Assembly (NCBI GenBank): GCA_965207225.1
Contig: CBDBLV010000005.1
Coordinates: 544,001-608,000 of the forward strand
DNA length: 64,000 nucleotides
Direction: 5' to 3'
Origin: Dehalococcoidia bacterium
GTDB lineage: Bacteria; Chloroflexota; Dehalococcoidia; Plut-88900
Positions 3,176 through 59,521 of the stretch are shown here, piece after piece. A program made the translations under genes and the position numbers. A model generated the notes under the pieces. The model worked only from the letters and a program-made list of their open reading frames with translations. It searched no databases and had not been told where the DNA came from. Numbering within the stretch: the first letter of the stretch is position 1; every line of letters begins with the position of its first letter.

Positions 3176-3847
3176 CTAGGCCTGCGCCATCTCCGCTTCC
3201 TGCTTCTGGTTCACCAGCGAAATGATGATGTGGATCGCTTCCCGAAGGCTGATCTTCCGGGTGTTGATCACCAGGTCATAGTGCTCCATGTCCTCGAAGT
3301 CGGCCTTAAAATACTTCTTGATGTAGGCCTTGTGGGCCTTGTCCATCTCCTCCACCTTCGCTTCTGCATCCTCACGGGAGATGTGGAAGTAGTCCATGAC
3401 CCTCGGGATGCGCACCTCCAGCGGCGCGTGCAGGAAGATGTGCAGCGAACCCGGGTGGTCCTTCAGCACTAGCTGCGCCCCCCGACTCACCAGCACGACA
3501 CTCTCGCCTTCCGCCAGGTCGTGTATCACCGACTCCAGCGCGTTTGCGTACTTTTCCTCCGTGAGCACGTCGCCCGTCGGCACGTAGTGAGGCCCGAGAT
3601 CGAACGGCGCCACCGGCCCGGCAGAGATCTGCTCGAATGCCCTGCCCAGCTCCTTCGCTATCCGTCCTCTCAGTCCCCACGGCACGTGGTCTATGTCCGC
3701 CACCTCTTCCACGGAGGTGTCCAGGTGACGCGCCACTTCGCTTAGAATCTGTCGGTCCACGTAGCGCACGTTCATCACGCGCGCCACTTCAGGCGCGATT
3801 ATGTACGCGCCGCTTCCAATTAGTCCTCGGATCGTTATAGCCGGCAT
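3176..3847 (-). CDS. Cytidylate kinase-like family protein
   Basis: ITI.G..GSG, V.V.RGAQ.VL, LHIFL.AP...R, YDLVINT motifs. Confidence 0.85.
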   Translation of the reverse strand: MPAITIRGLIGSGAYIIAPEVARVMNVRYVDRQILSEVARHLDTSVEEVADIDHVPWGLRGRIAKELGRAFEQISAGPVAPFDLGPHYVPTGDVLTEEKYANALESVIHDLAEGESVVLVSRGAQLVLKDHPGSLHIFLHAPLEVRIPRVMDYFHISREDAEAKVEEMDKAHKAYIKKYFKADFEDMEHYDLVINTRKISLREAIHIIISLVNQKQEAEMAQA

Positions 3848-45500: not shown

Positions 45501-47192
45501 TTATAATTTCCTTCGGTCGGGCCCCCAGCCCGACTCCTCGTTGCCGAGTGGTGTAGTGGTAGCACACGGGACTTTGGATCCCTTGGCCCAGGTTCGAGTC
45601 CTGGCTCGGCAGCCAACATGTACTGTAGACAGAACTGTACCCCCAAGGCTGAAGTATTCGGAATCGCTGGACCCGATGGGGCTGTCTTGGGGCATGGGAA
45701 TCGTGTAGCGAATCGTCGCCTCACTGCTGCCCACCACAATCTCCTTTATGAATGACCGGACAAAGGCTTTGGTTTCCGTAAGCTCGCTTTCCTGGAGAAA
45801 CACACCCATTTCTCGTGCATAGCGTGTAATCGTCTCGACACCATCCAATATGGATGGGTGTTTTGACAGAGCAGCCTGGGCTTCTTCCGCAGCGATTTCC
45901 AGTTGCTCCTGACGTTCCTGGTGTTCTCGGATGCGCGGGACGATGTCGTTGATTTCCATGTCGGTGGTTTCGACAACATGCCAGAGTCGATCCGTGCGTC
46001 GGCGCAATTCGACCAACTCTTCATCAACAGCCTCTATCCTTTCTCTTTGAGCCTTAACTGCTCCGTCAAGTTCCTCGTTAACTAACTTCACCAAGCTCCT
46101 AATGTTGCTCTCAGTCAATATGTTCGATCTCAGTTGGTCAACAATTATTCGTTCAAAACGCTTTGCACTGAGCCTGGGGGTCTGGCACGATTCTCGGCCT
46201 TGTTTAACCAGAGAATTGCAAACGTAGTAGGCATATTGTCCACTTTTGGCCTCTTGTCCAGTTAATGCCTTTTCGCATTGGGCGCATTTCACAAGTCCGC
46301 TGAGAAGATATCGACTGGCAGCTCTTTGAGGGTGGACTTTAGAAGGTGCGTTGGCTCGCATAAGCTTACCAACCCTCCGATAAATGTCGGTAGAGACTAT
46401 GGCCGGGAAAGCGTTCTCTACACGCACCGGGGGAACTTGGTCCTTAGCATTAACTCCCCACAGATTCGTACCGGTGTAAACCTCATTGGTAAGAATTCGG
46501 TGAATGCTCGTTTTTGCCCATCTCTTGCCCCAAGGGCTGGCTATTCCTTCCTTGTTGAGAACCTTCGCGATATCCAGAGTACTCTTCCCGCGATCAGCCA
46601 ACTCGAAAATCCTACGAACTATAGAATCAGCTGGTGAGTTCAAATCCAGTTTCGGACGCTTCTTAGGGCCGTCGGGAACGAAAACCCGCTTGTAACCATA
46701 GGGTGCGCAAGGGGCAACCCAGAAACCCCGAGAAGCCGCCTCCCGCGTTCCGCGCATCACTTCTTGGGCTAGGTTTTCGCTGTAGAACTCATCTACGCTC
46801 TCGATGATGGCCTCCATGAGCTTACCTGTGGGTGAGTCGTCGGCATACTCGGTGATGGAAACCACCCTTATGCCCCGCCTTCTCAGCATGGACTTGAAGG
46901 CGACGGCATGCTCTCGCTTACGGGTGAACCGGGAGAACTTCCAGACCAGAATTTCCTTGAAAGCAGCATTGGTACTTCTAGCCTCGTCCAGCATTCGTCT
47001 GAACTGGGGTCTGTCGGCTATGCGGCCGCTCTCCGCCTCGTCCACGAACTCGCGAACTACGATGTAGCCGTTCTTTTCAGCGTAGTCGCGGAGCGCCCGA
47101 AGCTGGGCGGCCACTGAAAGGTCCACATCCTGCCGGTCACTGGAAACGCGGGCGTAGAGAGCCGCTGGTATCATTTCATCCTGTATATTCAT
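45501..47192 (-). CDS. Large serine recombinase (integrase)
   Basis: ALYARVSSDRQ catalytic Ser, SGR...RP.F, SRF.R, PYGY, LLSGLVKC..C...YYVC Zn ribbon, coiled coil; last 37 aa read antisense over tRNA-Gln and its upstream region. Confidence 0.95.
   Translation of the reverse strand: MNIQDEMIPAALYARVSSDRQDVDLSVAAQLRALRDYAEKNGYIVVREFVDEAESGRIADRPQFRRMLDEARSTNAAFKEILVWKFSRFTRKREHAVAFKSMLRRRGIRVVSITEYADDSPTGKLMEAIIESVDEFYSENLAQEVMRGTREAASRGFWVAPCAPYGYKRVFVPDGPKKRPKLDLNSPADSIVRRIFELADRGKSTLDIAKVLNKEGIASPWGKRWAKTSIHRILTNEVYTGTNLWGVNAKDQVPPVRVENAFPAIVSTDIYRRVGKLMRANAPSKVHPQRAASRYLLSGLVKCAQCEKALTGQEAKSGQYAYYVCNSLVKQGRESCQTPRLSAKRFERIIVDQLRSNILTESNIRSLVKLVNEELDGAVKAQRERIEAVDEELVELRRRTDRLWHVVETTDMEINDIVPRIREHQERQEQLEIAAEEAQAALSKHPSILDGVETITRYAREMGVFLQESELTETKAFVRSFIKEIVVGSSEATIRYTIPMPQDSPIGSSDSEYFSLGGTVLSTVHVGCRARTRTWAKGSKVPCATTTPLGNEESGWGPDRRKL
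45542..45615 (+). tRNA. tRNA-Gln(TTG)
   Basis: Acceptor TGCCGAG/CTCGGCA, anticodon loop CT-TTG-GA, GTTCGAG T-loop, encoded CCA; TATAAT at 45502-45507. Confidence 0.95.
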
Positions 47193-47276
47193 TGGTTCAC
47201 TCCTTCATTCCTTCATCACCGTTCATCACTATATCCGTGTTCACTTATCCTTCCTTCCGACACCCATATTCAACTA

Positions 47277-48188
47277 TCAGGGTACCGGTGCCAACTCCCG
47301 CCTGCGGCACCCCGTATCGAAAGCAAGCAACTGGGGGCTGATAGCGGCGCGGTCCTGGCAGTGCACGGCAACGACCAACACCTTGGCCACCCTCCCCTTC
47401 CAGGAGTGGGGCCGGGCTATGATGGCCAGGCCGCCGCAATCGGTGTACTGGGATCTTTCGTGCCGTACGATCCTATCGACCAGGGAGCCGGGTGCAGGCA
47501 ACATGCCCTTGCGCTTAAACAGACCCTGTTCCACCCAGCAGGGGAAGGAGTCCGGCATCCCAAAACCCCGGGTGCGCCGCACCACCGTCGCCTGGAGCAG
47601 AGGTGGCTTCGTCCGGTTCGGAGGGTCACCGTATTCCTTGCGCTCGTACTGCACTGCCATCAACGGCGGGTCCTGCAGAACCTCGGCCAGCCTGGGGATC
47701 ACCGATGCGCAGGAGCATCGGAACGCCTTCTGCAGGGCAAGCACATCCAGCCCCATAATGGAGGTCATGGGGCCGAAGACCCCCGGCTGCATCAGGATTG
47801 CCGCAGCAAGGCGGTCCGCCTCCCTGCACACCGTATGCTCCGGCGCAGAGTCGGTCAGCATGTCCCACAGGGTCTCGTAGATGATCTCGCATGCCTCGTG
47901 GAGCACCGTGTAGTTAGTGCTCCCCTCCCAGAGGCCGTGACGGTAGTAGGTGTCGTAGTGACCCCTGGGCCGCCCGATGTGGGTTACCTTCAGCCCGTCC
48001 ATCTGCCTCTCGTACGCCTCCCTGAACCAGGCACGCCTGAGCGCGGCGCGAAGCTCCTCCAGCTTGGGATTGCCCGAGATCCCAAAGCAGCCCATGAACC
48101 GGGCGGCCAGGTATTCCGGCTCCAGGATATTGTGAGGGGCCTCGGCGCCCAGCAGTTTTCGGCAGAAGTCCTCTCTAGTAACGGTCAT
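47277..48188 (-). CDS. ImmA/IrrE (DUF955)-like metallopeptidase
   Basis: TVLHEACE...EADRLAAAILM, then HTH-like L...F..S..S...RL; coupled to the XRE gene. Confidence 0.75.
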   Translation of the reverse strand: MTVTREDFCRKLLGAEAPHNILEPEYLAARFMGCFGISGNPKLEELRAALRRAWFREAYERQMDGLKVTHIGRPRGHYDTYYRHGLWEGSTNYTVLHEACEIIYETLWDMLTDSAPEHTVCREADRLAAAILMQPGVFGPMTSIMGLDVLALQKAFRCSCASVIPRLAEVLQDPPLMAVQYERKEYGDPPNRTKPPLLQATVVRRTRGFGMPDSFPCWVEQGLFKRKGMLPAPGSLVDRIVRHERSQYTDCGGLAIIARPHSWKGRVAKVLVVAVHCQDRAAISPQLLAFDTGCRRRELAPVP

Positions 48189-48616
48189 TCCAGCAACCTT
48201 TTGTTGGTGAATCGCTCGTACATCTCAACTATGAACCGCTTGGCGCTCAGGGAAAGGGGTCCGTTGGGCCGTGTCCCCACCCGGAATACCGGGTCGTCCA
48301 GCACGTAGCGGTAAGCCCGCTCTACCTCCAGCGTCTCCTTGCCGTAGGGGTCGGGCCTACCGGTGCGTCCCGCCCTCTTCATCAGTTCCCTCCGGTCCAC
48401 GTTGTAGATCTCGGCCAGCTTGCCGATGATGTTGGAACCGGGCCTCCGGCCCCCCCTTTCGATCTGGGACAGGTAGGAAGCCGAGATACCAGTGCGTTGC
48501 ATCACATCTCTCAGGCTCAGCTCCCCCCTCAGCCGCCGGAGCAGGGGCCCGATCTCCTCGTTGCCCCCTATCTCTCCGACGACTTCAGGTTCCCGCTTTT
48601 CTCCAGGTTCGTCCAT
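48185..48616 (-). CDS. XRE-family repressor (ImmR-like)
   Basis: LSLRDV..RTGISASYLSQIERG.R.P....KLAEIY; AGAGGAG RBS. Confidence 0.9.
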   Translation of the reverse strand: MDEPGEKREPEVVGEIGGNEEIGPLLRRLRGELSLRDVMQRTGISASYLSQIERGGRRPGSNIIGKLAEIYNVDRRELMKRAGRTGRPDPYGKETLEVERAYRYVLDDPVFRVGTRPNGPLSLSAKRFIVEMYERFTNKRLLE

Positions 48617-48692
48617 GCTGATTCTCCTCTGAGCCGCCCCATGAGCGGACGGTAATAGGTAAGGTACTCCTACTACCTTTCTGCGATATAAT

Positions 48693-48720
48693 TGTTACAT
48701 AGTTGTAACACTAATGTCAA
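48693..48720. promoter_or_regulatory. Palindromic operator overlapping a leftward promoter
   Basis: TGTTACA-TAGT-TGTAACA (48693-48710) lies next to a minus-strand TTGACA (48715-48720) in the AT-rich divergent region. Confidence 0.6.
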
Positions 48721-48895
48721 CACTTTTGAAACCGCAACCCTTTATAGCTTTTATTCCCTTGCTTGCATGCATTTGTTATTGTTACACTTGTGCTTATAGT
48801 GCATGTATTCTAATCCCTTCTACACAGCATGCGACAGGCATGGGCCCTTGAGCCTCCGAAGCGGCGGCCCTTGACCATCGAGAAAGACGAATTCA

Positions 48896-49069
48896 ATGAG
48901 CGGCAAGCGGAAGCAAGAACTCACAGCTCAGCAGGAGCGTAAACGTATCGATGGCCTGCGAGTCCTGGCTCGCATAATCGCACGCCACTATATCTCCAAC
49001 CCTCACAACTACCATAACGGGACAGACGCGGATGGGCTGGAGACGCCCCCCCAGGAGGACAAAGTATGA
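48896..49069 (+). CDS. 57-aa small protein (absent from the ORF track)
   Basis: MSGKRKQELTAQQERKRIDGLRVLARIIARHY...EDKV*; its stop overlaps the next ATG (ATGA). Confidence 0.65.
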   Translation: MSGKRKQELTAQQERKRIDGLRVLARIIARHYISNPHNYHNGTDADGLETPPQEDKV

Positions 49070-49305
49070 AGCGCAGGCGACCCTCATCTCGTGTAAGGCT
49101 CAATACACGCAGGGTCTGGGAGCTGCTCAACCGGCAGAACATGTCCCAGAGCGAGTTGGCGACCCAGGCCGGCACGTCGTCGAGTTACCTGTCCCAGCTC
49201 ATCTCAGGTACCCGACGGCCCTCCCCGTCTCTTCGCAGGCGGCTCATGGAGGCTCTCGACGTCTCCCGGTTCGACGATCTGTTCATCCTTGAGGTCACCG
49301 AGTGA
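49066..49305 (+). CDS. XRE/Cro-like HTH protein
   Basis: MSQSELA.QAGTSSSYLSQLISG.R.PS....RRL..AL....FDDLF; AGGAGG RBS. Confidence 0.88.
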   Translation: MKRRRPSSRVRLNTRRVWELLNRQNMSQSELATQAGTSSSYLSQLISGTRRPSPSLRRRLMEALDVSRFDDLFILEVTE

Positions 49306-49625
49306 GAAGTGGCTTTCTCCCTACCCACCTGATCATCGATGACGGCCTCATACCAGAGGACTTCACCGGGCGCACTGACATACTCAAGGAGGCCACCGTT
49401 CTCTCTTGGGAAGTACTGGTTGCCTGCCTGGGCGTCGAGCCACGCCATCTCCAGCGCTGGCGCAAGAGCACCAAGTCCTGTGGGGAAGGCCTTAGCGCTC
49501 TGATCCTGCTCGCCGTACGCATTCCGGGAGAGTCTATATCCTCATGGGCGTGGACGTATTGCCACCCACGGCGACGTACCGGCATCAGGACCATTAAGAG
49601 AGTTAGTGCAATGTGCGCTTCTTGA
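49302..49625 (+). CDS. HTH-like protein, possibly degenerate
   Basis: F..R...LKEAT.LSW..L..CLGVEPRHL.RWRK HTH-like segment; GTGA overlap with the previous gene. Confidence 0.5.
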   Translation: MRSGFLPTHLIIDDGLIPEDFTGRTDILKEATVLSWEVLVACLGVEPRHLQRWRKSTKSCGEGLSALILLAVRIPGESISSWAWTYCHPRRRTGIRTIKRVSAMCAS

Positions 49626-49789
49626 TCTGCCGTGCGCCATCCCGTAAGGACCGACTCCCCCTTCTTTGTCGTCCCTTACTTCCAAGCCACCTCGGTGCCG
49701 AATTCTAACACCCCCTGTTATTCCCATTCTGAGGCCGAGGGATGTGCATAACCCCCACTCTGCCAACTTCCAAAGGGTAAGCCCCTCGC

Positions 49790-49929
49790 CTCGCAAAATC
49801 CTGAATTCGGCTTCACTAATGGCTGTCAGAAATAAGTTCTGCTCTGGTTGCTCGGCAACTCATTGGAAAACCCTCAACTGGTGTGGAGTTCATGATTTCT
49901 GATACTTCGTTAGTATCTAAAATGATCAT
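49790..49929 (-). pseudogene. FitB/VapC PIN toxin pseudogene
   Basis: MIILDTNEVSEIM start at 49929, then a frameshift and in-frame TGA before VAEQPEQNLFLTAISEAEFR; similarity is lost afterwards. Confidence 0.75.
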
Positions 49930-49939
49930 CGTCTTGGCA

Positions 49940-50191
49940 TCAGTCGAATATCGGGGGTTCTGGCATGGGGTCCCTGGGAGGTATTCTCAATTCCACCCCT
50001 TCAAGCGGTGCAAAACGATTCCTAATGGCCTCGGCCAAGTTCCCTACCTTTGGTCTGTCTGAATAGAGGTTTATACGAAGAATGTCCCTTGCTGCTTGCT
50101 CCATTGAAGTGCCCTTTTCCGCCGCCCTGATTCTGAGTCTCTGCTTTAGGTCTTCATCTAAATTGCGTATCGTTATGCTTGCCATGCCCAA
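49940..50191 (-). CDS. FitA-like ribbon-helix-helix antitoxin
   Basis: MASITIRNLDEDLK.RLRIRAA..G.SME..AR.IL...NLA.AI..RFAPL; AAGGAGG RBS. Confidence 0.9.
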   Translation of the reverse strand: MGMASITIRNLDEDLKQRLRIRAAEKGTSMEQAARDILRINLYSDRPKVGNLAEAIRNRFAPLEGVELRIPPRDPMPEPPIFD

Positions 50192-50215
50192 GCCTCCTTG
50201 TGTCTAGTGTGCACA

Positions 50216-50252
50216 AATGTCGGCGTGATTGCATTGCAATCACGCCGACATT
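50216..50252. promoter_or_regulatory. Perfect 37-bp palindrome (FitA operator and/or terminator)
   Basis: AATGTCGGCGTGATTGCA-T-TGCAATCACGCCGACATT. Confidence 0.6.
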
Positions 50253-50288
50253 AAGCGGACCTTACTTCGAGGCTACGGTCACTAAAGG

Positions 50289-51449
50289 CTAGTTAAACCT
50301 GTACACCCTACCCGCGTTTTCACACACAATCTTCTTCCTTACATCTTCTGGCAGGTGTCCCAGCCCCTCTTCAATCGCCTTCCGACTGTCCGGGAAGACC
50401 CCATCCTGATGAGGATAGTCGGAACCCCACATGATGTTGTCCACCCCTATTCGCTCCACCTGGTCCAACGATACGTACTCCTGTTGGAACGTCGAATATC
50501 CCTGCCGTTGCCAGTACTCCGAGGGAGCATGTGGAAGGCCGATGTGGAATAGACGGTCCTTGTATTCGTTGTCAGTGCGTTCCAGCACGTATGGCAGCCA
50601 CCCGATACCACACTCCCCAAGAACGAAATTGAACCTCGGATTCTTCTCGCACGCACCCGAAAGCAGGATGCTCACCAGGAACTCTGCTCCGGAGAGCTGG
50701 AACAGGATGTATACGAGCCCCGTATCCACCCACTCGTAACGCTCGGCTTCTTCCGGGTCGACCTTTGCATGCTTTAACCCCAGGGTGTGAAAGGAGATCG
50801 GCATTTCACATTCTGCTGCGGTGCCCCAGAGCACGTCCCAGTCTTCGTGATAGATGGGCTTTCTCATCTGCGAAACGTTGAGTTCGGCCCCCCTGAGCCC
50901 TAGCTCTGCCGCTGTCCTCAGCTGTCTCGCCGAGACCTCGGGTTCGTGGCACGTAATGCATGCCAGGGCCGCCATCCTTTCCTCGTACCCCCTTGTTAGC
51001 CCCGCTACGTACTCGTTGTAGATATCGTAGGTTGCGGTGAGGGTGTCGGCCTCCGTGCCCGGCGTTACGTGCATTCCTCCCGCAATGCCGAGAATCCCGT
51101 AAATCACCTCCGCGTCAATGCCGTCTATATCCTGGTCCTTTATGCGCAGATCGGGGTCGACGGGATGGTATATGCCCTCAGATACACCATCGAAGAACCC
51201 GACCTCTGCCATGCGGTCCAGGTGAAGGGATTCACCTGGCGCGTATCCCTGTCCCGTTTTGACGCCTGCACTGTCGGAACCGACTGCACAGAATTCTTCC
51301 CCCTGCACAAACCAGTACTTGCCTCGATCAAGCGCCTCCACCTTTGGCATGCGGGACTTCAGGGCATCGGGCGCATTGGAGGTGAAAAGGTCGTGGGGAA
51401 GCCAGCGCAGGTCCAGATGAGTGTCCGCCGAGATGATTTCGTAGCCCAT
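50289..51449 (-). CDS. Amidohydrolase 2 family protein
   Basis: ISADTH, D.D.DGIDAEVIY, PISFH, ECGIGW.P, MWGSDYPH.D, NA.RVY. Confidence 0.9.
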   Translation of the reverse strand: MGYEIISADTHLDLRWLPHDLFTSNAPDALKSRMPKVEALDRGKYWFVQGEEFCAVGSDSAGVKTGQGYAPGESLHLDRMAEVGFFDGVSEGIYHPVDPDLRIKDQDIDGIDAEVIYGILGIAGGMHVTPGTEADTLTATYDIYNEYVAGLTRGYEERMAALACITCHEPEVSARQLRTAAELGLRGAELNVSQMRKPIYHEDWDVLWGTAAECEMPISFHTLGLKHAKVDPEEAERYEWVDTGLVYILFQLSGAEFLVSILLSGACEKNPRFNFVLGECGIGWLPYVLERTDNEYKDRLFHIGLPHAPSEYWQRQGYSTFQQEYVSLDQVERIGVDNIMWGSDYPHQDGVFPDSRKAIEEGLGHLPEDVRKKIVCENAGRVYRFN

Positions 51450-51527
51450 TGTCTCTCCCTCCGTGCAACTTCTGACCTGAGGTTGTCATTTCACGCGAAA
51501 TTCCGGATGGCGAAATATGTCAGGGCC

Positions 51528-52304
51528 TTAATGGAACTTGGGGTCTCTTTTTTCTCGAAACGCTGCTATAGCTTCGCTGTGCTCCGCCGTTCCCATGGCG
51601 CTCCTGAAAACCCCCGACTCTTGTAGATCTATTGCCTCGAAGTCCTCAGCTACGGAGTTGTCCCGCAGCATCCGCTTGGTCTCGGCTAGTTGCCAGATCG
51701 GCGCCTCAGCAATGCTTTGTGCCAGTTCGACCGCCCGCTCCACAACTTCCTCCTTGGGGTAGACCTCTAGGACCATCCCCATATCCTTGGCCTCTTGTCC
51801 CGTGAAGAAGCGCCCGGTGAACATCACCTCGTTAGCCCGCTCTAGTCCTATGAGCCTGGGAAGGGTGTGGGTACTCCCGAGCTCTGGTGTGAGCCCGAGC
51901 CTTACAAACCTGAACGAAAGCTTGGCATCTACCGCAGCAAGCCTGATATCGCAAAGCAGCGTGCATGTTATTCCCAGCCCGACCGCCACCCCATTTACAG
52001 CGGCTATGGTCGGCTTGGGCATCGAGCGAAGCGTCAGATACCATTGGTCTCGCTCATCACGAGAGTTGCTGTCAGGCGAGGAGAGCTGGTTCTCAAAGTT
52101 CGAGATGTCCGCACCCGAGCAGAACGCTCTGCCCGCCCCGGTGAGCACAACGGATCCCACGGAATCATCATCCTTCCACGCCTCCAACTGCTGCCGGACT
52201 TCCGCGCCCATCTCGGGGATCATGGCATTCAGCCGGTCAGGCCGGTTGAAGGTTATTATCCCCACCCGGCCTCGCTGCTCGGCGATGATGTACTCGTAGC
52301 TCAT
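51528..52304 (-). CDS. Enoyl-CoA hydratase/isomerase family protein
   Basis: NRPDRLNA, TGAGRAFCSGAD, AVNG.AVGLG, GLTPELG, AF.EKRDPKF. Confidence 0.92.
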   Translation of the reverse strand: MSYEYIIAEQRGRVGIITFNRPDRLNAMIPEMGAEVRQQLEAWKDDDSVGSVVLTGAGRAFCSGADISNFENQLSSPDSNSRDERDQWYLTLRSMPKPTIAAVNGVAVGLGITCTLLCDIRLAAVDAKLSFRFVRLGLTPELGSTHTLPRLIGLERANEVMFTGRFFTGQEAKDMGMVLEVYPKEEVVERAVELAQSIAEAPIWQLAETKRMLRDNSVAEDFEAIDLQESGVFRSAMGTAEHSEAIAAFREKRDPKFH

Positions 52305-52435
52305 TCAGTCGTCTCCCGGCATAAATTCTCCCGGATACCGGTGATCCAGGCTAGGACATTGATAGTTCTCGGTAGTATAAGGCAGGCGCGTACATTACGG
52401 GATATGATCTCTCTCGGTGCTCTCGGAATTCCCGA

Positions 52436-53671
52436 CTATCCTTCCGCACGGGCTAAACGCAACCGATGCAGAGGACTGTCATTGATCGGCAGATGCACAA
52501 CCGCAGCAAAAACTCCGAACCCGATTCCCGCCCACCACATAGCGTCATAAGAACCCGTTCGGTCATAGAGCACCCCGCCCATCCATACCCCAATAAAGCT
52601 CCCGACCTGGTGGCTCAGGAAGACGATCCCGAACAGAGTCGCCATGAACTTGAGCCCGAATATCTGCGCCACAATCCCCGTAGTCAGTGGCACGGTAGAC
52701 AACCAGAGCAATCCCATCGATGCGGCGAATAGATAAATGGTTAGTTCACTGGCTGGGGCCATAAGAAGGCCAAGAATGATTAGTGCCCGAGTAAAGTAGA
52801 TGGCGGATAGGCCTATCTTCTTCGAATATCGTTGCCCAAAAGCCCCCGACATGAGAGAACCCAGGATGTTAAACAGCCCGACTATCGAAAGAGCGTATGC
52901 TCCCGCCCGAGCCGGAAGCCCGAGGTCCGTCACATACGTCGGAAAATGTACCGTGATGAACGCAACGTGAAACCCGCAGACGAAGAAGCCCGCCGTAAGC
53001 AGCAGGTAACTCCGGTGGCTCGTCGCCTCACCCAGGGCATTGCCGAGACCCTGGTTGGATGCCGGCTCCCCCCTCGAGCCCGAACCTCCTCTGAGGCTGA
53101 ACGCCAGCGGAATCAACACCAACGAGACAAACGACATTATTATCAGGGAGTCGTACCAACCGTAGCTGTCAATGAGGGCCTGGTTGATGGGAGAAAACAC
53201 GACTTGCCCCAGCGACCCCGCCGCCGTCCCGAGCCCCAACGCCAGTGACCTCCGCTCAGGCCCGATTATGCGGGCCATCGCTGCCAGGACCAGCGAGAAT
53301 GAGCAGAAAGCTACCCCCACCCCCACCAGGACCCCTCCGGTCAGGTGCAAAGCCACCCCGCTCCCCGACATCGCCATCCCCGCCACCCCGACTGCGTAAA
53401 TCACAGCCCCCAGCGCTATCACCTTCGCTGTCCCGAACCGGTCCGCAATTGCCCCCGCCACCGGGACCCCGACACCCCACAAAAGGTTCTGGATCGCCAT
53501 CGCCAGCGAAAACGTCTCCCGGCTCCACCCATTCGCCACCGTCATGGGCTCCAGGTACAACCCGAAGCTCGCCCGGATCCCGAATCCTATCAGCGAAATC
53601 AGACACGCCGACGCTATGACCGCCGTTAAGGTAATCCGTCCGGGATGAATATCTACTCGCGGTTGGTCCAT
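52436..53671 (-). CDS. MFS transporter
   Basis: ~12 TM helices; G.IADRFG, GFFVCGFH, HQVGSF.G.W.GG.LYD.TGSY. Confidence 0.92.
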   Translation of the reverse strand: MDQPRVDIHPGRITLTAVIASACLISLIGFGIRASFGLYLEPMTVANGWSRETFSLAMAIQNLLWGVGVPVAGAIADRFGTAKVIALGAVIYAVGVAGMAMSGSGVALHLTGGVLVGVGVAFCSFSLVLAAMARIIGPERRSLALGLGTAAGSLGQVVFSPINQALIDSYGWYDSLIIMSFVSLVLIPLAFSLRGGSGSRGEPASNQGLGNALGEATSHRSYLLLTAGFFVCGFHVAFITVHFPTYVTDLGLPARAGAYALSIVGLFNILGSLMSGAFGQRYSKKIGLSAIYFTRALIILGLLMAPASELTIYLFAASMGLLWLSTVPLTTGIVAQIFGLKFMATLFGIVFLSHQVGSFIGVWMGGVLYDRTGSYDAMWWAGIGFGVFAAVVHLPINDSPLHRLRLARAEG

Positions 53672-53693
53672 TGTGGTTGTATAATCTACCCGA

Positions 53694-53768
53694 TCCCCGA
53701 TAGCTCAATGGTAGAGCGGGCGGCTGTTAACCGCTAGGCTGCAGGTTCGAGTCCTGCTCGGGGAGCCA
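53694..53768 (+). tRNA. tRNA-Asn(GTT)
   Basis: Acceptor TCCCCGA/TCGGGGA, anticodon loop CT-GTT-AA, GGTTCGAGTCC, encoded CCA; TATAAT at 53680-53685. Confidence 0.96.
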
Positions 53769-53781
53769 TCCACCCGACACA

Positions 53782-53819
53782 GAATCGCCCGCCGGGCCAA
53801 GGGGCCCGGCGGGCGATTC
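53782..53819. terminator. Hairpin between tRNA-Asn and the convergent adhesin gene
   Basis: GAATCGCCCGCCGGGCC-AAGG-GGCCCGGCGGGCGATTC, perfect 17-bp stem. Confidence 0.8.
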
Positions 53820-53842: not shown

Positions 53843-56800
53843 CTAGCTGTCGAAGAACTCCTGGATGATCGTCACCACGTCCGTCAGGCTTAACTCGTCT
53901 GCGAAGTAGTCCTTCACGGCCTCCAGGGCCTCAGACCTCTCTATCGATCCGTTGCCATTCGCGTCGTACCTGCCGATCAGCGCCTGCGCCGCCACTGTGG
54001 AGGTGGTCACTCCCTCGGCGCTCTTCCCGGACCCGACCGCATCCGTGTAGGACGCCGTCGCCCGGAGGTAGCTGCCCAGGTCGCCCTGTCGGGGCACGTA
54101 CGTCGCCGAAGTGGCGTTGGCTATCGCCGTCCACCCCGACGTCCGGCTCGTGGACTTCTCCCACTGCCAGGTCACGTTTCTCACGCCGCCGTCCGGATCG
54201 CTCAGGCTTGCCGTCACGCTGCTCCCGACCCTCGGCGCCGACGTTGACAGGCTCACAACTCCGTCATCGTCCTGCGCCACGGCCGCGGCCGTGATTCCCT
54301 CGGCGCTCTTGCCCGACCCACCGGCGTCCGTGTAGCTCGCCGTCGCCCGGATGAAGCTCCCCTGGTTCGCCGCCGTAGCCGTGTAGCTGTTCGACGTGGC
54401 ACCCAGGATGATCACCCAGTTCGACGTACCGTTCGTCGACGTGGCCCACTGCCACGTCACGCCCGTCACGCCGCCGTCGGGGTCGGTCACCGTTGCCGTT
54501 ACCGTCTCCCCGACCTCCGGCCTTGTATTCGACAGGCTCACCGTGCCCGCACTGTCCGTCGCCGTGATCGTTACCGAGATCGTCGCCCTGTCCCCGGGCG
54601 TGTCCGTTGCCACGACCGTGACGCTGTACGACCCCTCTTGCAGGGTCACACCCGCCAGCGTTAGCAGCTGCCCGGTGGAGCTGTTGATCCCGAACGATGC
54701 GGCGTCCGTGCCTTCCAGGGTGTACGTCAGTGTGTCACTGGTATCCGCGTCTGTAGCGCCGAGGGGTTGGCCGATTGTCGTGCCCGCCCCGGCGTTTCTG
54801 GCCACGCTTCGGACCGCGCTCGTGCCCTCGGTGAACACGGGCAGGTTGTTGGGCGGTGCTGCTGTGGCCTCAATCGAGACCTGAATCCTGGCGATGTCCG
54901 TACCGTCGTCGGCTGCCACCGTCACCGTGTACGTTTCATCGACGGTTAGCGTGATCCCTGACTTCGTGACCAGTTGACCCGTGGTTGGGCGAATCTCGAA
55001 GAACGGAGCGTCTCGCCCTTCTAGGCGGTAGGTTATCGTATCGCCCGAATCGGCGTCCCTCGCGGTGATTGGAGCCCCTACGGGCGTACCCGGCTGCGCA
55101 CTCGCCCTCACGCTCCGCGTGGCGCTTGCACCCTCGCTGAACACCGGCAGGTTGTTCGCACCGGGCGCATTCGTCGACCCGTTGCCCGGATTCGACCAGT
55201 TGCTGGTGCCCTCGGCGTTCGTCGCCCTCACCTCCACGTCGTAGAACGTGTTCGGCGTCAGGCCAGTAATCGTCACTGTCCTTCCCGAAATGGTAGTGTT
55301 GGTGACCTCGGTCCAGGATGCCGAACCAGTCCGGTGCCGGTAGTCGTAGTCGGTGATGGGCGGGCCCGTGTTCCCCGGCTCTTCCCACGTCACCTGGACG
55401 CTTGTGCTCGATACCGCCGTCACCCTTGGCGCCGATGGCGTGTCCGGTGGTTCGGCGATGTCCGTCACGTTGATCGTAACGCTGACAGTGGCAGTCCCGC
55501 CCCTGGTGTCCGTCGCCTTGACAGTCACCGAGTGTCTCGACTTGTCCTCGTGGTTCAGGTCTGCGCTGGCCCGTATCTGCCCGCTGCCGGGATCGATGTC
55601 GAATGAAGCAGCGTCTGCGCCTTCAAGTGTATGCGTCACCGGGTCCAGGTCGGGGTCTACGGCAGTGACCGGGCTGCCAATCGGGTCTCCGGCTCGCTCG
55701 TTCTCGGCTATATCGAACGAGCGTGTACCACCGGAAAATATCGGTTTCTGGTTGGCCACGTCGGGGTTCGGTGATCCTGTCCCCGACCGCGACCAGTCGC
55801 CGGTGAGTTCGCCGTTGTTTGCCCGTACCTCAACTGCGTAGCGCGTACCCGGCGTCAGACCGGTGATGATCGCGCTCCTGTCCGCGCCATCGTGGGATAC
55901 ATTACCGGGGCAGTCCAGGCACCGCACGTCATAGTCTGTGATGGGAGGCCCACCGTTTGCAGGTTCGTCCCATGTAACTCGCACGCTGTCAGTGGAGCCG
56001 GCTATTCCCGTCACCCGAGGTGGAGCCGGCGCAGATGGACGTTCGTCCACGTCATCGACAATGATGGTCACCGACTTGGCGGCGACGCTGTTGTCTCTCC
56101 TCTGCCCGTCGTTAACCTTCACCGTCAACGAATAGCTGCTTCTCTCCTCGTAGTTGAGGGGGGCTCGCGTCCGTATCTGGCCCGAGGAGGAGACGATGGT
56201 GAACGAGGCGGCTCCTGGCCCCTCCAGACTGTAGGTCAGCCTGTTGCGGTCCGGGTCCGTTGCCTCCACCGCCCCACCTATGTTCTGCCCCGACCGCGTG
56301 TTTTCGTCCACCCTCAGCGTCACCAGGGACTCCGTGTTAGCGAAGACAGGCCGCTTATTGCTCTGACCGGTCGTGCCCCGGCCCACGGGCGACCAATTCC
56401 CGGCGTCGGCGGGGGAGGGGTCTGTTCCGTCGCCCTCTCCGTTCTTCGCCCGCACCTCAACTTCGTACTGGGTGCCTGGATCAAGGTTTGCAGCGGTAGC
56501 GGCATCACCCGGGTCAGACCGTATAGTAGTTATCTTGGCGCTTCTGTCCGTGTTGTTGGCTGCGGGGTTGGTGGTGGTGCCGTGGGGCCAATCTTGCCAT
56601 ACGATGTCTCCGACTTTGCGATACCGGATGTCGTAATCTGTGATGTCCGGCCCGGTGTTGCGCGGCTCACTCCAGGTCACTTCAAGACTCCAGCCAGAGT
56701 CCTTCGTGGCCGTGACCGTTGGCCGAGCCGGGGCGGATGGAGGTTCCAGAACATCCAGGATAGTGATCGGCACGTCTGGGGATAAGACACTGCCTCCGTC

Positions 56801-59332
56801 GTTGTCTCTGACCTTAACCCTCACGGTATAGCTGCTTTTCTCCTCAAAGTTTAGGGGCGATTTCGTTTTGATCTGCCCGGCCGAGTCAATGGTGAATAGG
56901 CCCGCGTCGGAACCTTCGAGACTATAAATGACTCTTCCGTCCCCATCCGAATTAGTTGCCGCCACATGGGAACTGTTCGGGGTGCCAGCAGAGAGTATTG
57001 CTCTTCCCGCCGGAGTATTCTCATCAACCTGCAGATCGCTTGGCGACGAATCTATCGTAGGAATCGCATTGTCGGCCTTGCTGGTCGACTGCCTGATTGA
57101 TGCCGACCACGTCCCCGGGCCCTCAGGATTCACCGCGCGCACCCGGACTTGGTAGGAACTGCCCGGGGTGAGGTCCGCTATTGTATAAGACTGCGCAGTG
57201 GCAGTGAGATCCGTAATGTCAGTCTCAGTGGGCTGGGGGCATGGGTTAGCAGTTGTAATTCCGGCGCCGCTGCATTCCACTTCGTAACTGCTGAGGGGAG
57301 GTGCCGTGCTCAAGTTATCGGGCGCACTCCAAGTCACCGTTAACGTCGCATTGGTTGCCCCCTCCGCAACGAAAGGCGACGTCACCGTCACCGTCGGCGC
57401 TGACGGTGGTTCAGGACGGTCGTTGACTGTGATGAGGACCTTGATGATGTCGTCGACTGCGGGAGTGTCCTCCATGTTTCCGTGATTGTCTAGGCCGTCC
57501 CAGACCTCCACCTGCACCTTATAGGTACACACGGTTGGAGTAACGAGGGGATCGTATTCACACGCTGTGGTGTCTTCGTGATTCAGGGATTCCTTAGTCA
57601 GTATCTGCCCGGTAGACTCATTAATGTCGAACTTATTCACGTCATCTGTATCAACCGTGTCCGCGATTAATCTGTAAGTCAGTTTATCACGGTCGTTGGC
57701 CGAGACCGGGGCCCCGACATGCTGTCCGATCCGGGTATTCTCATTCACGGACCGATTCACAGTCCGGTCATCGGTGGTCGGATCGTCCAACTCAGGCCTC
57801 CGTTCTTCTTGGTCCGGTCTGTCATTGAACTTGGGCTGGCGATTTCCCGCACTCGTCCGCCCAGTGGCTCGCGCCGAGAAAGCGCTGTTGAGCTCGGCAG
57901 TCTTGGCGCTTACGTATACCTCGTAGGATGCGCCGGGCGTTAGGCGTTCATCAACGTCTGCCGTGTCGGCATCATCCGAGGGATCGATTGTGACTTTGGT
58001 TTCCGTGGCTTCGATGGTTCTGAAGGTGCCGCTGTTGCCCTGCCGGTACCGTACGTCATAGCCGGTGATTGGAGGCCCCATGTTCTGCGGTTCCGTCCAA
58101 CTCACGTCCAGGCTCCTGCTGTCCCCCTCCGTCGCCCGGACCGTAACCCGAGTCGGCACTCCCGGTGCCTCCGGCACGTCGTCGATTTCGATCTTCACCG
58201 CTTGCGCATCGCTTCCCCCCTTTCCGTCGAAAGCCGTCACTGTCACGTAGTAGGCGCATTCGGTTGTAGTTGCCGTATCTACATAGCCACATGCCGGGTC
58301 CTCGTGGTTGTAGGTCACGCCCCTCTTCGTCCGTATCTGGGACAACGATGGGTTGAAGTCGAACAGGCCGGCGTCGGGACCTTCGAGCCGGTAGGTCAGC
58401 GGGAGCACACCGTCGTCCGTCGCTGTAATCGGTCGACCTACGTCCTCTCCCGCCTCTTCGTTTTCATCTACGTCCCTGGTAACTACACGGTCGGTGCCTC
58501 TATCGATGAATGTCGGCGGCTTGTTATTCAATTTGTTAGTTGATCCGGTCCCCACGAGGGACCAGTTTTCAGTGGCGTCTGCTTCTCCGTTCGTCGCCCG
58601 TACGCGTACCCGGTAAGAGGTGTCGGTTTCCAGACCTGTAATTTCGGCGTATGCAATCGTGCCGGAGTGTGTTGAATCGGAAAAGCTCGCTTCAGTGGTC
58701 TTCTTGTACTGCACTTCATACCCAGTGATTGCGGGCCCTGTGTTGTCGGGTGCGTGCCAGACCACCTTCAGACTAGTGGACGATTCGTCCGTGTTTGCGG
58801 TATTCGGATTGTCATAAGATGCCACCGTCGGCGCGACGGGCGCTGCGGGAGGTTCATCCACACCCGTGACCGTGATTGTCACGTCTCGCGTAATTGGGTT
58901 AACGCGAACTTCACCATCATCCACCTTAACTGTCACCGTGTAGGAAGTCTTGTCGCCGTCAGCGTCCAGCGGAGCCTTGGTGATCAACTGCCCCGTTGAA
59001 GAGTCGATGTGAAACGCGGCTGCGTCGGCGCGGGCCACGTCGGTTTCAGCATTGGGTTGGAGACTGTAAGTCAGCGTGTTGCCAAACTCCAGAGCAGCGT
59101 CACCTGTCTCGTCGAGGTCAGTGGCTGTGACGGGGTCTCCGATATTGACGCCTGGTGGCGTGTTCTCAACCACCGATCTGCCGGCACTGTCGTCGAATGT
59201 AGGATCCGCCGCAAACACCACATTGTTCAATCCCCCCACCCCCCCCAACCCCAACAAAACCACCCCCAACACCACCCCAACAAGGATCACACCCCACACC
59301 ACCCGACCCTTGATTATTGATAAGTCCATCAT
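53843..59332 (-). CDS. Giant surface protein with alternating cadherin-like and fibronectin type III domains and a C-terminal EF-hand/dockerin-like module (~1829 aa)
   Basis: Signal peptide MMDLSIIKGR...VVFA; repeated V.EN..G..IG.PV.A.D.D...L.Y.L.G.DA..F.I..GQ (cadherin) and L.V.W..P.N.GP.IT.Y...Y...L.P.T.Y.V.VRA.N (FN3); tail YDANGNGSIERSE. Confidence 0.92.
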   Translation of the reverse strand: MMDLSIIKGRVVWGVILVGVVLGVVLLGLGGVGGLNNVVFAADPTFDDSAGRSVVENTPPGVNIGDPVTATDLDETGDAALEFGNTLTYSLQPNAETDVARADAAAFHIDSSTGQLITKAPLDADGDKTSYTVTVKVDDGEVRVNPITRDVTITVTGVDEPPAAPVAPTVASYDNPNTANTDESSTSLKVVWHAPDNTGPAITGYEVQYKKTTEASFSDSTHSGTIAYAEITGLETDTSYRVRVRATNGEADATENWSLVGTGSTNKLNNKPPTFIDRGTDRVVTRDVDENEEAGEDVGRPITATDDGVLPLTYRLEGPDAGLFDFNPSLSQIRTKRGVTYNHEDPACGYVDTATTTECAYYVTVTAFDGKGGSDAQAVKIEIDDVPEAPGVPTRVTVRATEGDSRSLDVSWTEPQNMGPPITGYDVRYRQGNSGTFRTIEATETKVTIDPSDDADTADVDERLTPGASYEVYVSAKTAELNSAFSARATGRTSAGNRQPKFNDRPDQEERRPELDDPTTDDRTVNRSVNENTRIGQHVGAPVSANDRDKLTYRLIADTVDTDDVNKFDINESTGQILTKESLNHEDTTACEYDPLVTPTVCTYKVQVEVWDGLDNHGNMEDTPAVDDIIKVLITVNDRPEPPSAPTVTVTSPFVAEGATNATLTVTWSAPDNLSTAPPLSSYEVECSGAGITTANPCPQPTETDITDLTATAQSYTIADLTPGSSYQVRVRAVNPEGPGTWSASIRQSTSKADNAIPTIDSSPSDLQVDENTPAGRAILSAGTPNSSHVAATNSDGDGRVIYSLEGSDAGLFTIDSAGQIKTKSPLNFEEKSSYTVRVKVRDNDGGSVLSPDVPITILDVLEPPSAPARPTVTATKDSGWSLEVTWSEPRNTGPDITDYDIRYRKVGDIVWQDWPHGTTTNPAANNTDRSAKITTIRSDPGDAATAANLDPGTQYEVEVRAKNGEGDGTDPSPADAGNWSPVGRGTTGQSNKRPVFANTESLVTLRVDENTRSGQNIGGAVEATDPDRNRLTYSLEGPGAASFTIVSSSGQIRTRAPLNYEERSSYSLTVKVNDGQRRDNSVAAKSVTIIVDDVDERPSAPAPPRVTGIAGSTDSVRVTWDEPANGGPPITDYDVRCLDCPGNVSHDGADRSAIITGLTPGTRYAVEVRANNGELTGDWSRSGTGSPNPDVANQKPIFSGGTRSFDIAENERAGDPIGSPVTAVDPDLDPVTHTLEGADAASFDIDPGSGQIRASADLNHEDKSRHSVTVKATDTRGGTATVSVTINVTDIAEPPDTPSAPRVTAVSSTSVQVTWEEPGNTGPPITDYDYRHRTGSASWTEVTNTTISGRTVTITGLTPNTFYDVEVRATNAEGTSNWSNPGNGSTNAPGANNLPVFSEGASATRSVRASAQPGTPVGAPITARDADSGDTITYRLEGRDAPFFEIRPTTGQLVTKSGITLTVDETYTVTVAADDGTDIARIQVSIEATAAPPNNLPVFTEGTSAVRSVARNAGAGTTIGQPLGATDADTSDTLTYTLEGTDAASFGINSSTGQLLTLAGVTLQEGSYSVTVVATDTPGDRATISVTITATDSAGTVSLSNTRPEVGETVTATVTDPDGGVTGVTWQWATSTNGTSNWVIILGATSNSYTATAANQGSFIRATASYTDAGGSGKSAEGITAAAVAQDDDGVVSLSTSAPRVGSSVTASLSDPDGGVRNVTWQWEKSTSRTSGWTAIANATSATYVPRQGDLGSYLRATASYTDAVGSGKSAEGVTTSTVAAQALIGRYDANGNGSIERSEALEAVKDYFADELSLTDVVTIIQEFFDS

Positions 59333-59521
59333 TTCGACACCCTGCTTACTAAAAATGGCTGCCGGGCCCTTCCCGTTCCAACGCCTCATCCACTAGTCCC
59401 CCACCTCAAGAATCACAGCCCCCCACACCGCCCCACCCCTGAAAATTGACAATTCCATTATATCGACACCCTGCTTACTAAAAACGATTGCTGGCCCCGA
59501 CTCGTTCCAGCCGCCTCATCC
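59331..59521 (-). repeat. ~130-bp tandem duplication of the adhesin 5' leader and first codons
   Basis: TCGACACCCTGCTTACTAAAAA...GCCTCATCC at 59334-59391 and 59463-59521; upstream copy encodes MELSIFRGGAVWGAVILEVGD* (59458-59393). Confidence 0.8.

Follow-up and report, generated by a model that had tools for sequence, protein, structure and literature searches.

Canonical large serine integrases have attP, the attachment site of the element, outside the integrase open reading frame (ORF), and attB mostly in protein-coding genes. Attachment sites that lie inside genes are known from the integration-dependent immunity of mycobacteriophages, where attP is inside the repressor gene, recombination is by a tyrosine integrase and a degradation tag has an established role, and from the archaeal SSV, in which the integrase gene is split far from its end. 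Closer to the case treated here is DsiB, a CcrB-like serine recombinase of the ssrA-specific islands at the transfer-messenger RNA (tmRNA) gene of Dehalococcoides mccartyi, which has been suggested to be fully functional perhaps only on the circular form (McMurdie et al., 2011; PMC3146451). The Mx8 and SSV integrases are said to 'extend across attP' in the Islander paper (PMC4383910), a 2017 review of mobilizable elements has serine-recombinase elements inserting within genes, and a 2020 preprint on ocean elements touches on large serine recombinases only briefly. Here we analyse a stretch of 64,000 nucleotides, hereafter the window, from a Dehalococcoidia bacterium (assembly GCA_965207225.1; the genome is designated G000 and the window is C5:544001-608000), in which an ORF for a large serine recombinase runs in antisense through a tRNA-Gln gene. 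We argue that this ORF is very probably the integrase of a family of Dehalococcoidia integrative elements whose gene spans its own attachment site and has its tail swapped on integration, the copy in the window being a stump.

The Pfam domains of the ORF are Resolvase, Recombinase and Zn_ribbon_recom. The resolvase catalytic domain is present (PF00239, E 6.8e-34, residues 10-156) and is matched by resolvase-family catalytic domains in the PDB as well; Recombinase (PF07508) and then the zinc ribbon (PF13408) follow, with a coiled-coil insert that appears in the predicted structure as long helices at 361-409 and 414-444. Sequence matches in the PDB are to YokA/SprA of SPbeta (query residues 53-489) and to the catalytic domain of TP901-1, and the best NCBIfam match is CcrB, far under the cut-off. 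The C-terminus reads ...VLSTVHV|GCRARTRTWAKGSKVPCATTTPLGNEESGWGPDRRKL*, with 37 residues beyond STVHV, and the tRNA-Gln gene is wholly covered in antisense by this frame, whose TAA stop overlaps a TATAAT hexamer; each of these features lies where a first-pass annotation of the window had placed it. The TATAAT is a plausible -10 element, because GGTTATAAT upstream of tRNA-Gln is kept in 9/9 genomes of the genus while the flanking bases diverge; a sigma-70 scan at the hexamer found it without a matching -35, and a full promoter was not called. The position of the TAA inside this hexamer likely needs no special explanation, as an AT-rich hexamer is where, in surroundings of 58-60% G+C, a frame is likely to meet its first stop.

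The left flank and the tRNA were compared with 41 genomes, of which eight, all of the same genus, matched the flank. Homology stops at 45615-45617 in 7/7 informative same-genus genomes, the eighth being interrupted by a contig end, and longer stretches of the seven have the same homology end. The junction is therefore directly seen at the tRNA CCA, as the first-pass annotation had proposed. On the right side, homology restarts at 49804 in two of the genomes (G005 and G001), which have an intact PIN-domain vapC between the tRNA and that point, and at 50291 in two others (G008 and G007), in which 53 bp separate the tRNA from an amidohydrolase gene. An empty-site form is also present in a contig of an unrelated metagenome study, which connects 45616 to 50291 with 53 letters between. 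As a separate observation, the 3' end of tRNA-Gln is directly repeated over 40 nt, 1.3-2 kb downstream of the tRNA, in G002 (3222-3261 of its locus stretch) and in G006, where the repeats enclose a vapBC pair plus a duplicate of the amidohydrolase gene, an island without an integrase; this may be the scar of another event at the same tRNA, possibly of the tyrosine type.

The arrangement recurs well beyond this locus. A protein search returned 4934 relatives, of which 120 were listed (66-75% identity, lengths 529-657 aa), and among those listed the sequences agree through ...PVLSTVxxG(G) and then diverge, many tails containing xRTRTx or IRTx, the product of the T-arm in reverse. The expectation of the first-pass annotation, that conservation among homologs might give way at this point to variable antisense-tRNA tails, was thus borne out, with ...STVxxG as the limit. 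A survey of loci covered the best 80 of at least 427 confirmed matches in Dehalococcoidia and Chloroflexota genomes. At 53 of these 80 loci the codon that matches codon 526 is followed, after 0 nt in 48 cases, 1 nt in two and 2 nt in three, by the 3' end of a tRNA encoded on the other strand. By amino acid, these tRNAs divide into Ile (11), Ala (11), Arg (8), Met (5), Gln (5), Lys (4), Glu (4), Leu (4) and Val (1), spanning 16 isoacceptors and nine amino acids, and three further loci at tRNA-Gln(ttg) have a junction identical to that in the window. Homologs that stop ahead of the tRNA, which the first-pass annotation had named as the sign of a stop lost locally, were not encountered: no in-frame stop occurs within 40 codons before the junction at any of the 78 readable loci. 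Tails at tRNA loci range from 3 to 429 residues (median 20), and in most relatives the frame ends inside the tRNA, after about 18-20 codons. None of the 80 loci has a tmRNA gene at the junction. The recurrence, too, is directly seen, and an integrase that reads in antisense into a tRNA is a trait of the family, not an accident.

Some integrases have identical last 22 residues and yet different tails; others carry the tail encoded by a two-arm site (see below) or run into a convergent integrase. The tails on identical 22-residue ends were matched by eye to Val, Lys, Met and Ile loci, with at least four or five tRNA species represented, and nearly identical enzymes thus seem to use several tRNA species as targets. 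The accompanying regular-expression classification of 166 proteins is rough, and it is biased, the second protein search having been aimed at the tail. A tyrosine-style duplication of the tRNA end was considered and rejected, since a tRNA-end repeat is absent upstream of the integrase both in the window and at 60 loci, where none of at least about 13 nt was found within 10 kb; a 9-nt core would escape this search.

On the element side, related loci have a motif (GTTCTGTCTACAGTA, GTTCGCAGTACAGTA or GTTATGAGTACGGTA) whose distance to the end of the tRNA is constant and which corresponds to the P' arm of the window. The GTT codon that opens the P' arm is unusually constant in its third base (1.61 bits, vs 0.52 and 0.69 at two conserved upstream Val codons), and this points to a constraint at the DNA level on a putative binding site. 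At some related loci, and at many places in the genome of the window, the site is present in a two-arm form, directly seen and of the attP type, in which two 15-nt arms, inverted relative to each other, enclose a spacer of 20 nt. The spacer contains TGGTGGGCC, the complement of the tRNA 3' end, and its centre is the two bases adjoining the discriminator (TGGT-GG-GCC, i.e. GGC-CC-ACCA on the tRNA strand). From this symmetry the crossover in the window is predicted at a CA dinucleotide about 4-5 nt inside the tRNA, and about 35-37 residues of the tail would therefore be host-encoded. The first-pass annotation had counted 37 host-derived residues; that many do follow STVHV, and the predicted crossover refines the figure to this range. 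Identity to the empty site of G008 extends to 45616, a limit compatible with the predicted crossover. Intact relatives have a core of 8-9 nt common to the site and the tRNA end, and in one stack of elements in the genome of the window (C5:130505-165921) the tRNA-Val end and the far end have just GCCCACCA in common, relatives carrying the empty site.

The tails also bear on how the tRNA might be recognized. The RT of tRNA-read tails (CGAAC, from the T-arm) lies two codons nearer the centre than the RT of two-arm tails (AGAAC, from the arm). In serine integrases the zinc-ribbon motif is offset by 5-6 bp between attB and attP. The two offsets match, from which we infer that the universal T-arm sequence (TCGAACC) could be what the enzyme recognizes as the outer motif in the bacterial half-site. 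In G008, the end of a tRNA-Val(tac) gene is followed by the inverted arm GTTCTTGATTTTGTCAAGTC, which in G000 is the arm type of a second integrase subfamily; the type of an arm is therefore not rigidly linked to where it lies with respect to the tRNA.

Read in the integrase frame, the two-arm sites encode GGP-x-[LW]-T-[IV]-[DG]-RT-[IV]-F-E-[LM]-[WR]-[LM]-G-x-L-stop. When the last 60 residues of a two-arm protein of this genome were used as the query, 54 proteins were retrieved, the query among them, about 20 with this native tail and mostly 544-547 aa long. A 545-aa ORF in the genome of the window (C5:379129-380709) is an example of a natural full-length form, its frame ending ...GGPILTVDRTVFELRLGSL. 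The structural model of the full-length form has a mean pLDDT of 57, with the tail below 50, although it draws a hairpin. Eleven metagenome contigs with the same arm and very different downstream DNA supply eight distinct variants of RTF-x-h-x-F-[SA]-L-x-x-stop, seven of which stop at the same codon, via TGA, TAG or TAA. The integrase of the second subfamily, located at the far end of its elements and reading outwards, has its own native tail, GPPDL[IT]KSRTF-x-L-x-h-x-L-x-h-stop, in 10/10 distinct copies. Over eight tail codons, the pairwise ratio of non-synonymous to synonymous differences (pN/pS) is 0.28 in the integrase frame vs 0.39-5.1 in four other frames, the fifth being without synonymous differences; in the metagenome set the corresponding values are 0.61 vs 0.80-2.3. 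The conserved tail is itself directly seen, and its substitutions fit selection at the level of the protein. On our reading, the true last ~19 codons and the stop of the integrase gene would lie past the crossover, and integration would carry them to attR. The proposal that attP lies within the 3' end of the integrase gene and that integration swaps the C-terminus agrees with this evidence, as the two-arm sites of relatives hold the native tail past the crossover; the attP version of the C-terminus, which the first-pass annotation had hoped to see translated, could be read from relatives as a tail of ~19 residues that looks selected.

The genome of the window offers further copies. Its 4.0-Mb assembly has 40 matches to the window integrase, among which seven copies abut tRNAs and seven pairs are convergent, tail to tail (e.g. 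C3:23303-26403, C3:57433-60557 and C3:85308-88432). The members of the convergent pairs represent two subfamilies, which are about 63% and 51% identical to the window integrase, and the pairs are ~30 kb apart. Between them are integrase-free arm-core-arm junctions (e.g. C3:67958, C5:145345 and C4:708989), at which the arms of the two subfamilies flank GGCCCACCA and the detached 19-codon tails of both subfamilies are retained. A single element bounded by two outward-facing integrases was rejected as an account of the pairs, since these junctions split each interval. Convergent integrase pairs are, judging from this arrangement, joints between stacked elements that form long arrays of the two subfamilies.

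What remains of the element in the window, together with its neighbours, is listed in Table 1.

Table 1. Coordinates of the integrase ORF, its attachment site and the surrounding features in the window.
Feature	Position	Strand	Remarks
Large serine recombinase ORF	45501..47192	-	563 aa; residues 1-526 element-encoded, remainder antisense of the tRNA gene and its leader
Stop TAA (minus strand, 45501-45503) overlapping TATAAT (45502-45507)	45501..45507		upstream of tRNA-Gln
tRNA-Gln(UUG) gene	45542..45615	+	called by ARAGORN (ttg); CCA encoded at 45613-45615; B arm of attL
Predicted crossover dinucleotide CA	45610..45611		just 5' of the discriminator; from the symmetry of relatives' two-arm sites
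Insert relative to G005 and G001	45617..49803		4.2-kb integrative-element stump, without right arm or attR
P' arm GTTCTGTCTACAGTAC	45620..45635	-	inside codons 520-525 (VLSTVH)
303-aa ORF, no known family	47277..48188	-	upstream of the integrase; no Pfam or NCBIfam match
XRE-type helix-turn-helix (HTH) regulator, 143 aa	48185..48616	-	
Cro/C1-type HTH gene, 79 aa	49066..49305	+	divergent from the XRE-type regulator
vapC 5' remnant (host PIN-domain gene)	49804..49929	-	about 42 codons, frameshifted
FitA-like ribbon-helix-helix antitoxin gene	49940..50191	-	partner of the shortened vapC

The 303-aa ORF has one paralog in the genome, 38% identical, and an 88%-identical copy of the XRE-type regulator adjoins the full-length integrase at C5:379129-380709. 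The DNA beside that integrase is 77% identical to 48169-49576 of the window, the similarity stopping short of the vapC break. Relative to G005, the window is without 345 bp of host DNA, comprising the 3' part of vapC and a spacer. No second arm matching the P' arm is present in the window, in which the P' arm is the sole match when up to 3 mismatches are allowed. Neither the tRNA end nor the core is repeated in 45640-53800, and attR was not found. Most simply, the element integrated at tRNA-Gln and later lost a segment that extended from its interior into vapC. That the arm stands at exactly the family spacing from the tRNA argues that attL is original and not a deletion endpoint. With attR and the native tail lost, the window copy can therefore no longer switch state.

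Three further observations concern the same part of the window. The summed contig depth is ~100-fold higher over 46704-47237 in run X1, and is also raised in X5-X7, because the most conserved part of the catalytic domain attracts many paralogs and relatives; no RNA run was among the sequencing runs listed for the stretch. An inverted repeat of 18 nt, perfect and with a loop of 1 nt (50216-50252), lies between the genes for the FitA-like antitoxin and the amidohydrolase, and could be an operator or a terminator. A protein of 1848 aa (53843-59389, minus strand) with six fibronectin type III and six cadherin stretches adjoins tRNA-Asn.

Taken together, these findings make it very probable that the ORF belongs to an integrase whose gene spans its own attachment site. 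The P' arm would lie within codons 520-525, the crossover a few bases further on, and the native ~19 codons with their stop on the P-arm side. Insertion would take place within the final few bases of a tRNA gene, in this case that of tRNA-Gln(UUG), whereupon 526 codons would remain at attL and the native tail would go to attR, at the element's opposite end. From attL the frame would then continue into the antisense strand of the tRNA to the first chance stop, which in the window comes 37 codons on, in TATAAT, and the right part of the element, with attR and the native tail, would later have been deleted along with the 345 bp of host vapC. Several points weigh against this reading. At 27 of the 80 surveyed loci no tRNA was called (8 have T-arm-like fragments, 17 other contexts and 2 contig ends). 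Neither the circular form nor attR of the window element was found, and its own attP version is unreadable. The exact position of the crossover is one that we infer from the symmetry of the two-arm sites and the limit of identity to the empty site, and the selection statistics, which draw on 8-10 short, related sequences, are supportive rather than decisive. The tail in the window, for its part, is predicted without structure (pLDDT below 50 over residues 523-563) and is most likely filler, with no function of its own; the conserved native tail implies that the full-length protein matters, however, so that the tail-swapped form may differ in activity and 'filler' may understate the case.

A different origin for the frame would be a local accident, in which a point mutation removed the stop of the integrase or a deletion fused a truncated integrase to the tRNA. 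The element has indeed suffered at least one deletion, on its right side, but the arm-to-tRNA spacing equals that of 48/53 family loci with a called tRNA (offset 0), the same junction exists at three other tRNA-Gln(ttg) loci, and the stopless approach to the junction at 78/78 loci is shared by the family, so we regard an accident as highly improbable. It is also unlikely that the overlap acts through antisense or head-on interference, with transcription of the integrase into the tRNA, or pairing of its mRNA with the tRNA or a precursor, silencing the integrase (or the tRNA) in the integrated state. The geometry, with the ORF meeting the tRNA head-on and complementary to all of it and to its leader, would allow this, as would the conserved TATAAT upstream of the tRNA; in relatives, however, the frame mostly ends inside the tRNA, and full read-through is not a feature of the family.

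The first-pass annotation had suggested that the tail swap could act as a switch of integration state, through protein stability, directionality or antisense silencing. It is conceivable, though we lean against it, that the swap is a working switch of this kind, in which the excised circle alone would encode the full-length enzyme, ending in a conserved C-terminal strand of ~19 residues, and the integrated copy would encode a tail-swapped enzyme altered in activity, directionality or stability; direction could then be controlled without a separate directionality factor. The length of the native tail, the position of its stop and its alternating hydrophobic pattern are conserved in two subfamilies and in distant metagenome variants, and since the native tail is conserved, the full-length form would be under selection; the same idea was raised for DsiB by McMurdie et al. 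(2011). Against it, integrated tails of 3-429 aa share no feature that is not imposed by the tRNA, the full-length form is modelled with low confidence, especially in the tail, and in the window the native tail is gone, so that a switch, if real, is dead here. In the same tentative spirit, only the excised circle might encode the complete enzyme, which together with a tail-swapped integrated copy would amount to a built-in switch of directionality or commitment, and use of the T-arm as outer motif might let near-identical enzymes use many tRNAs; we hold this combination to be possible rather than likely. The gene that spans its own attachment site, with its tail swapped on integration, remains our preferred reading.

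Serine integrases are valued tools of genome engineering, for which the choice of direction is a central question. As the state of integration would rewrite the C-terminus of the integrase, the family offers a test of whether a C-terminal peptide sets activity or direction without a separate factor, and the apparent use of many tRNA species by nearly identical enzymes bears on the recognition of attB. For annotation, the arrangement explains why these integrase genes in Chloroflexota have odd, variable ends and overlap tRNAs in antisense. The textbook view that tRNA genes are targeted by tyrosine integrases only, as given in the Islander paper (PMC4383910), is contradicted by the family. The locus in the window, being a dead stump, is one more example and adds little beyond that.

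Among described systems, DsiB is the nearest match. Compared by its description in McMurdie et al. (2011), it is likewise a large serine recombinase, of about 540 aa and from the same bacterial class, with divergent C-termini, a target within the 3' portion of a gene for a tRNA-shaped RNA, and islands that lie in tandem arrays; the overlap of the serine recombinase gene with attL, without a stop inside the island, is found here too. DsiB targets the tmRNA gene in the T-loop, with a 20-bp direct repeat left behind, whereas the family of the window uses ordinary tRNA genes (16 isoacceptors) with a junction at the acceptor end and, in intact relatives, just the 8-9-nt core in common, and the DsiB island module (DsiA small recombinase, RecF-like, ParB and Mom) is absent here, where a 303-aa ORF and two HTH genes are present and the remainder of the element is deleted. 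Mx8 IntP/IntX and SSV, as the Islander paper describes them, share an attP within the integrase gene and a product that integration changes or splits; unlike the window ORF, which has only serine-recombinase domains, they are tyrosine recombinases, whose attP carries a partial copy of the tRNA gene.

With SprA of SPbeta, TP901-1, A118/LI, PhiC31 and Bxb1 the window integrase has in common the order of its domains (Resolvase, Recombinase, then the zinc ribbon with its long coiled coil) and, going by the two-arm form in relatives, probably an attachment site of two inverted arms. The likeness to mycobacteriophage immunity is that an att site within a gene makes the product depend on the state of integration, the product being a repressor there and an integrase here. 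In the literature searched, which included few subscription journals and no supplements, no description was found of serine integrases at ordinary tRNA genes whose gene spans attP. The first-pass annotation was aware of no characterised precedent for the layout in a tRNA-targeting large serine recombinase, a claim to be corrected in view of DsiB, for which McMurdie et al. (2011) describe the same layout. The layout itself is thus known from DsiB, and what is new here is that it is aimed at ordinary tRNA genes.

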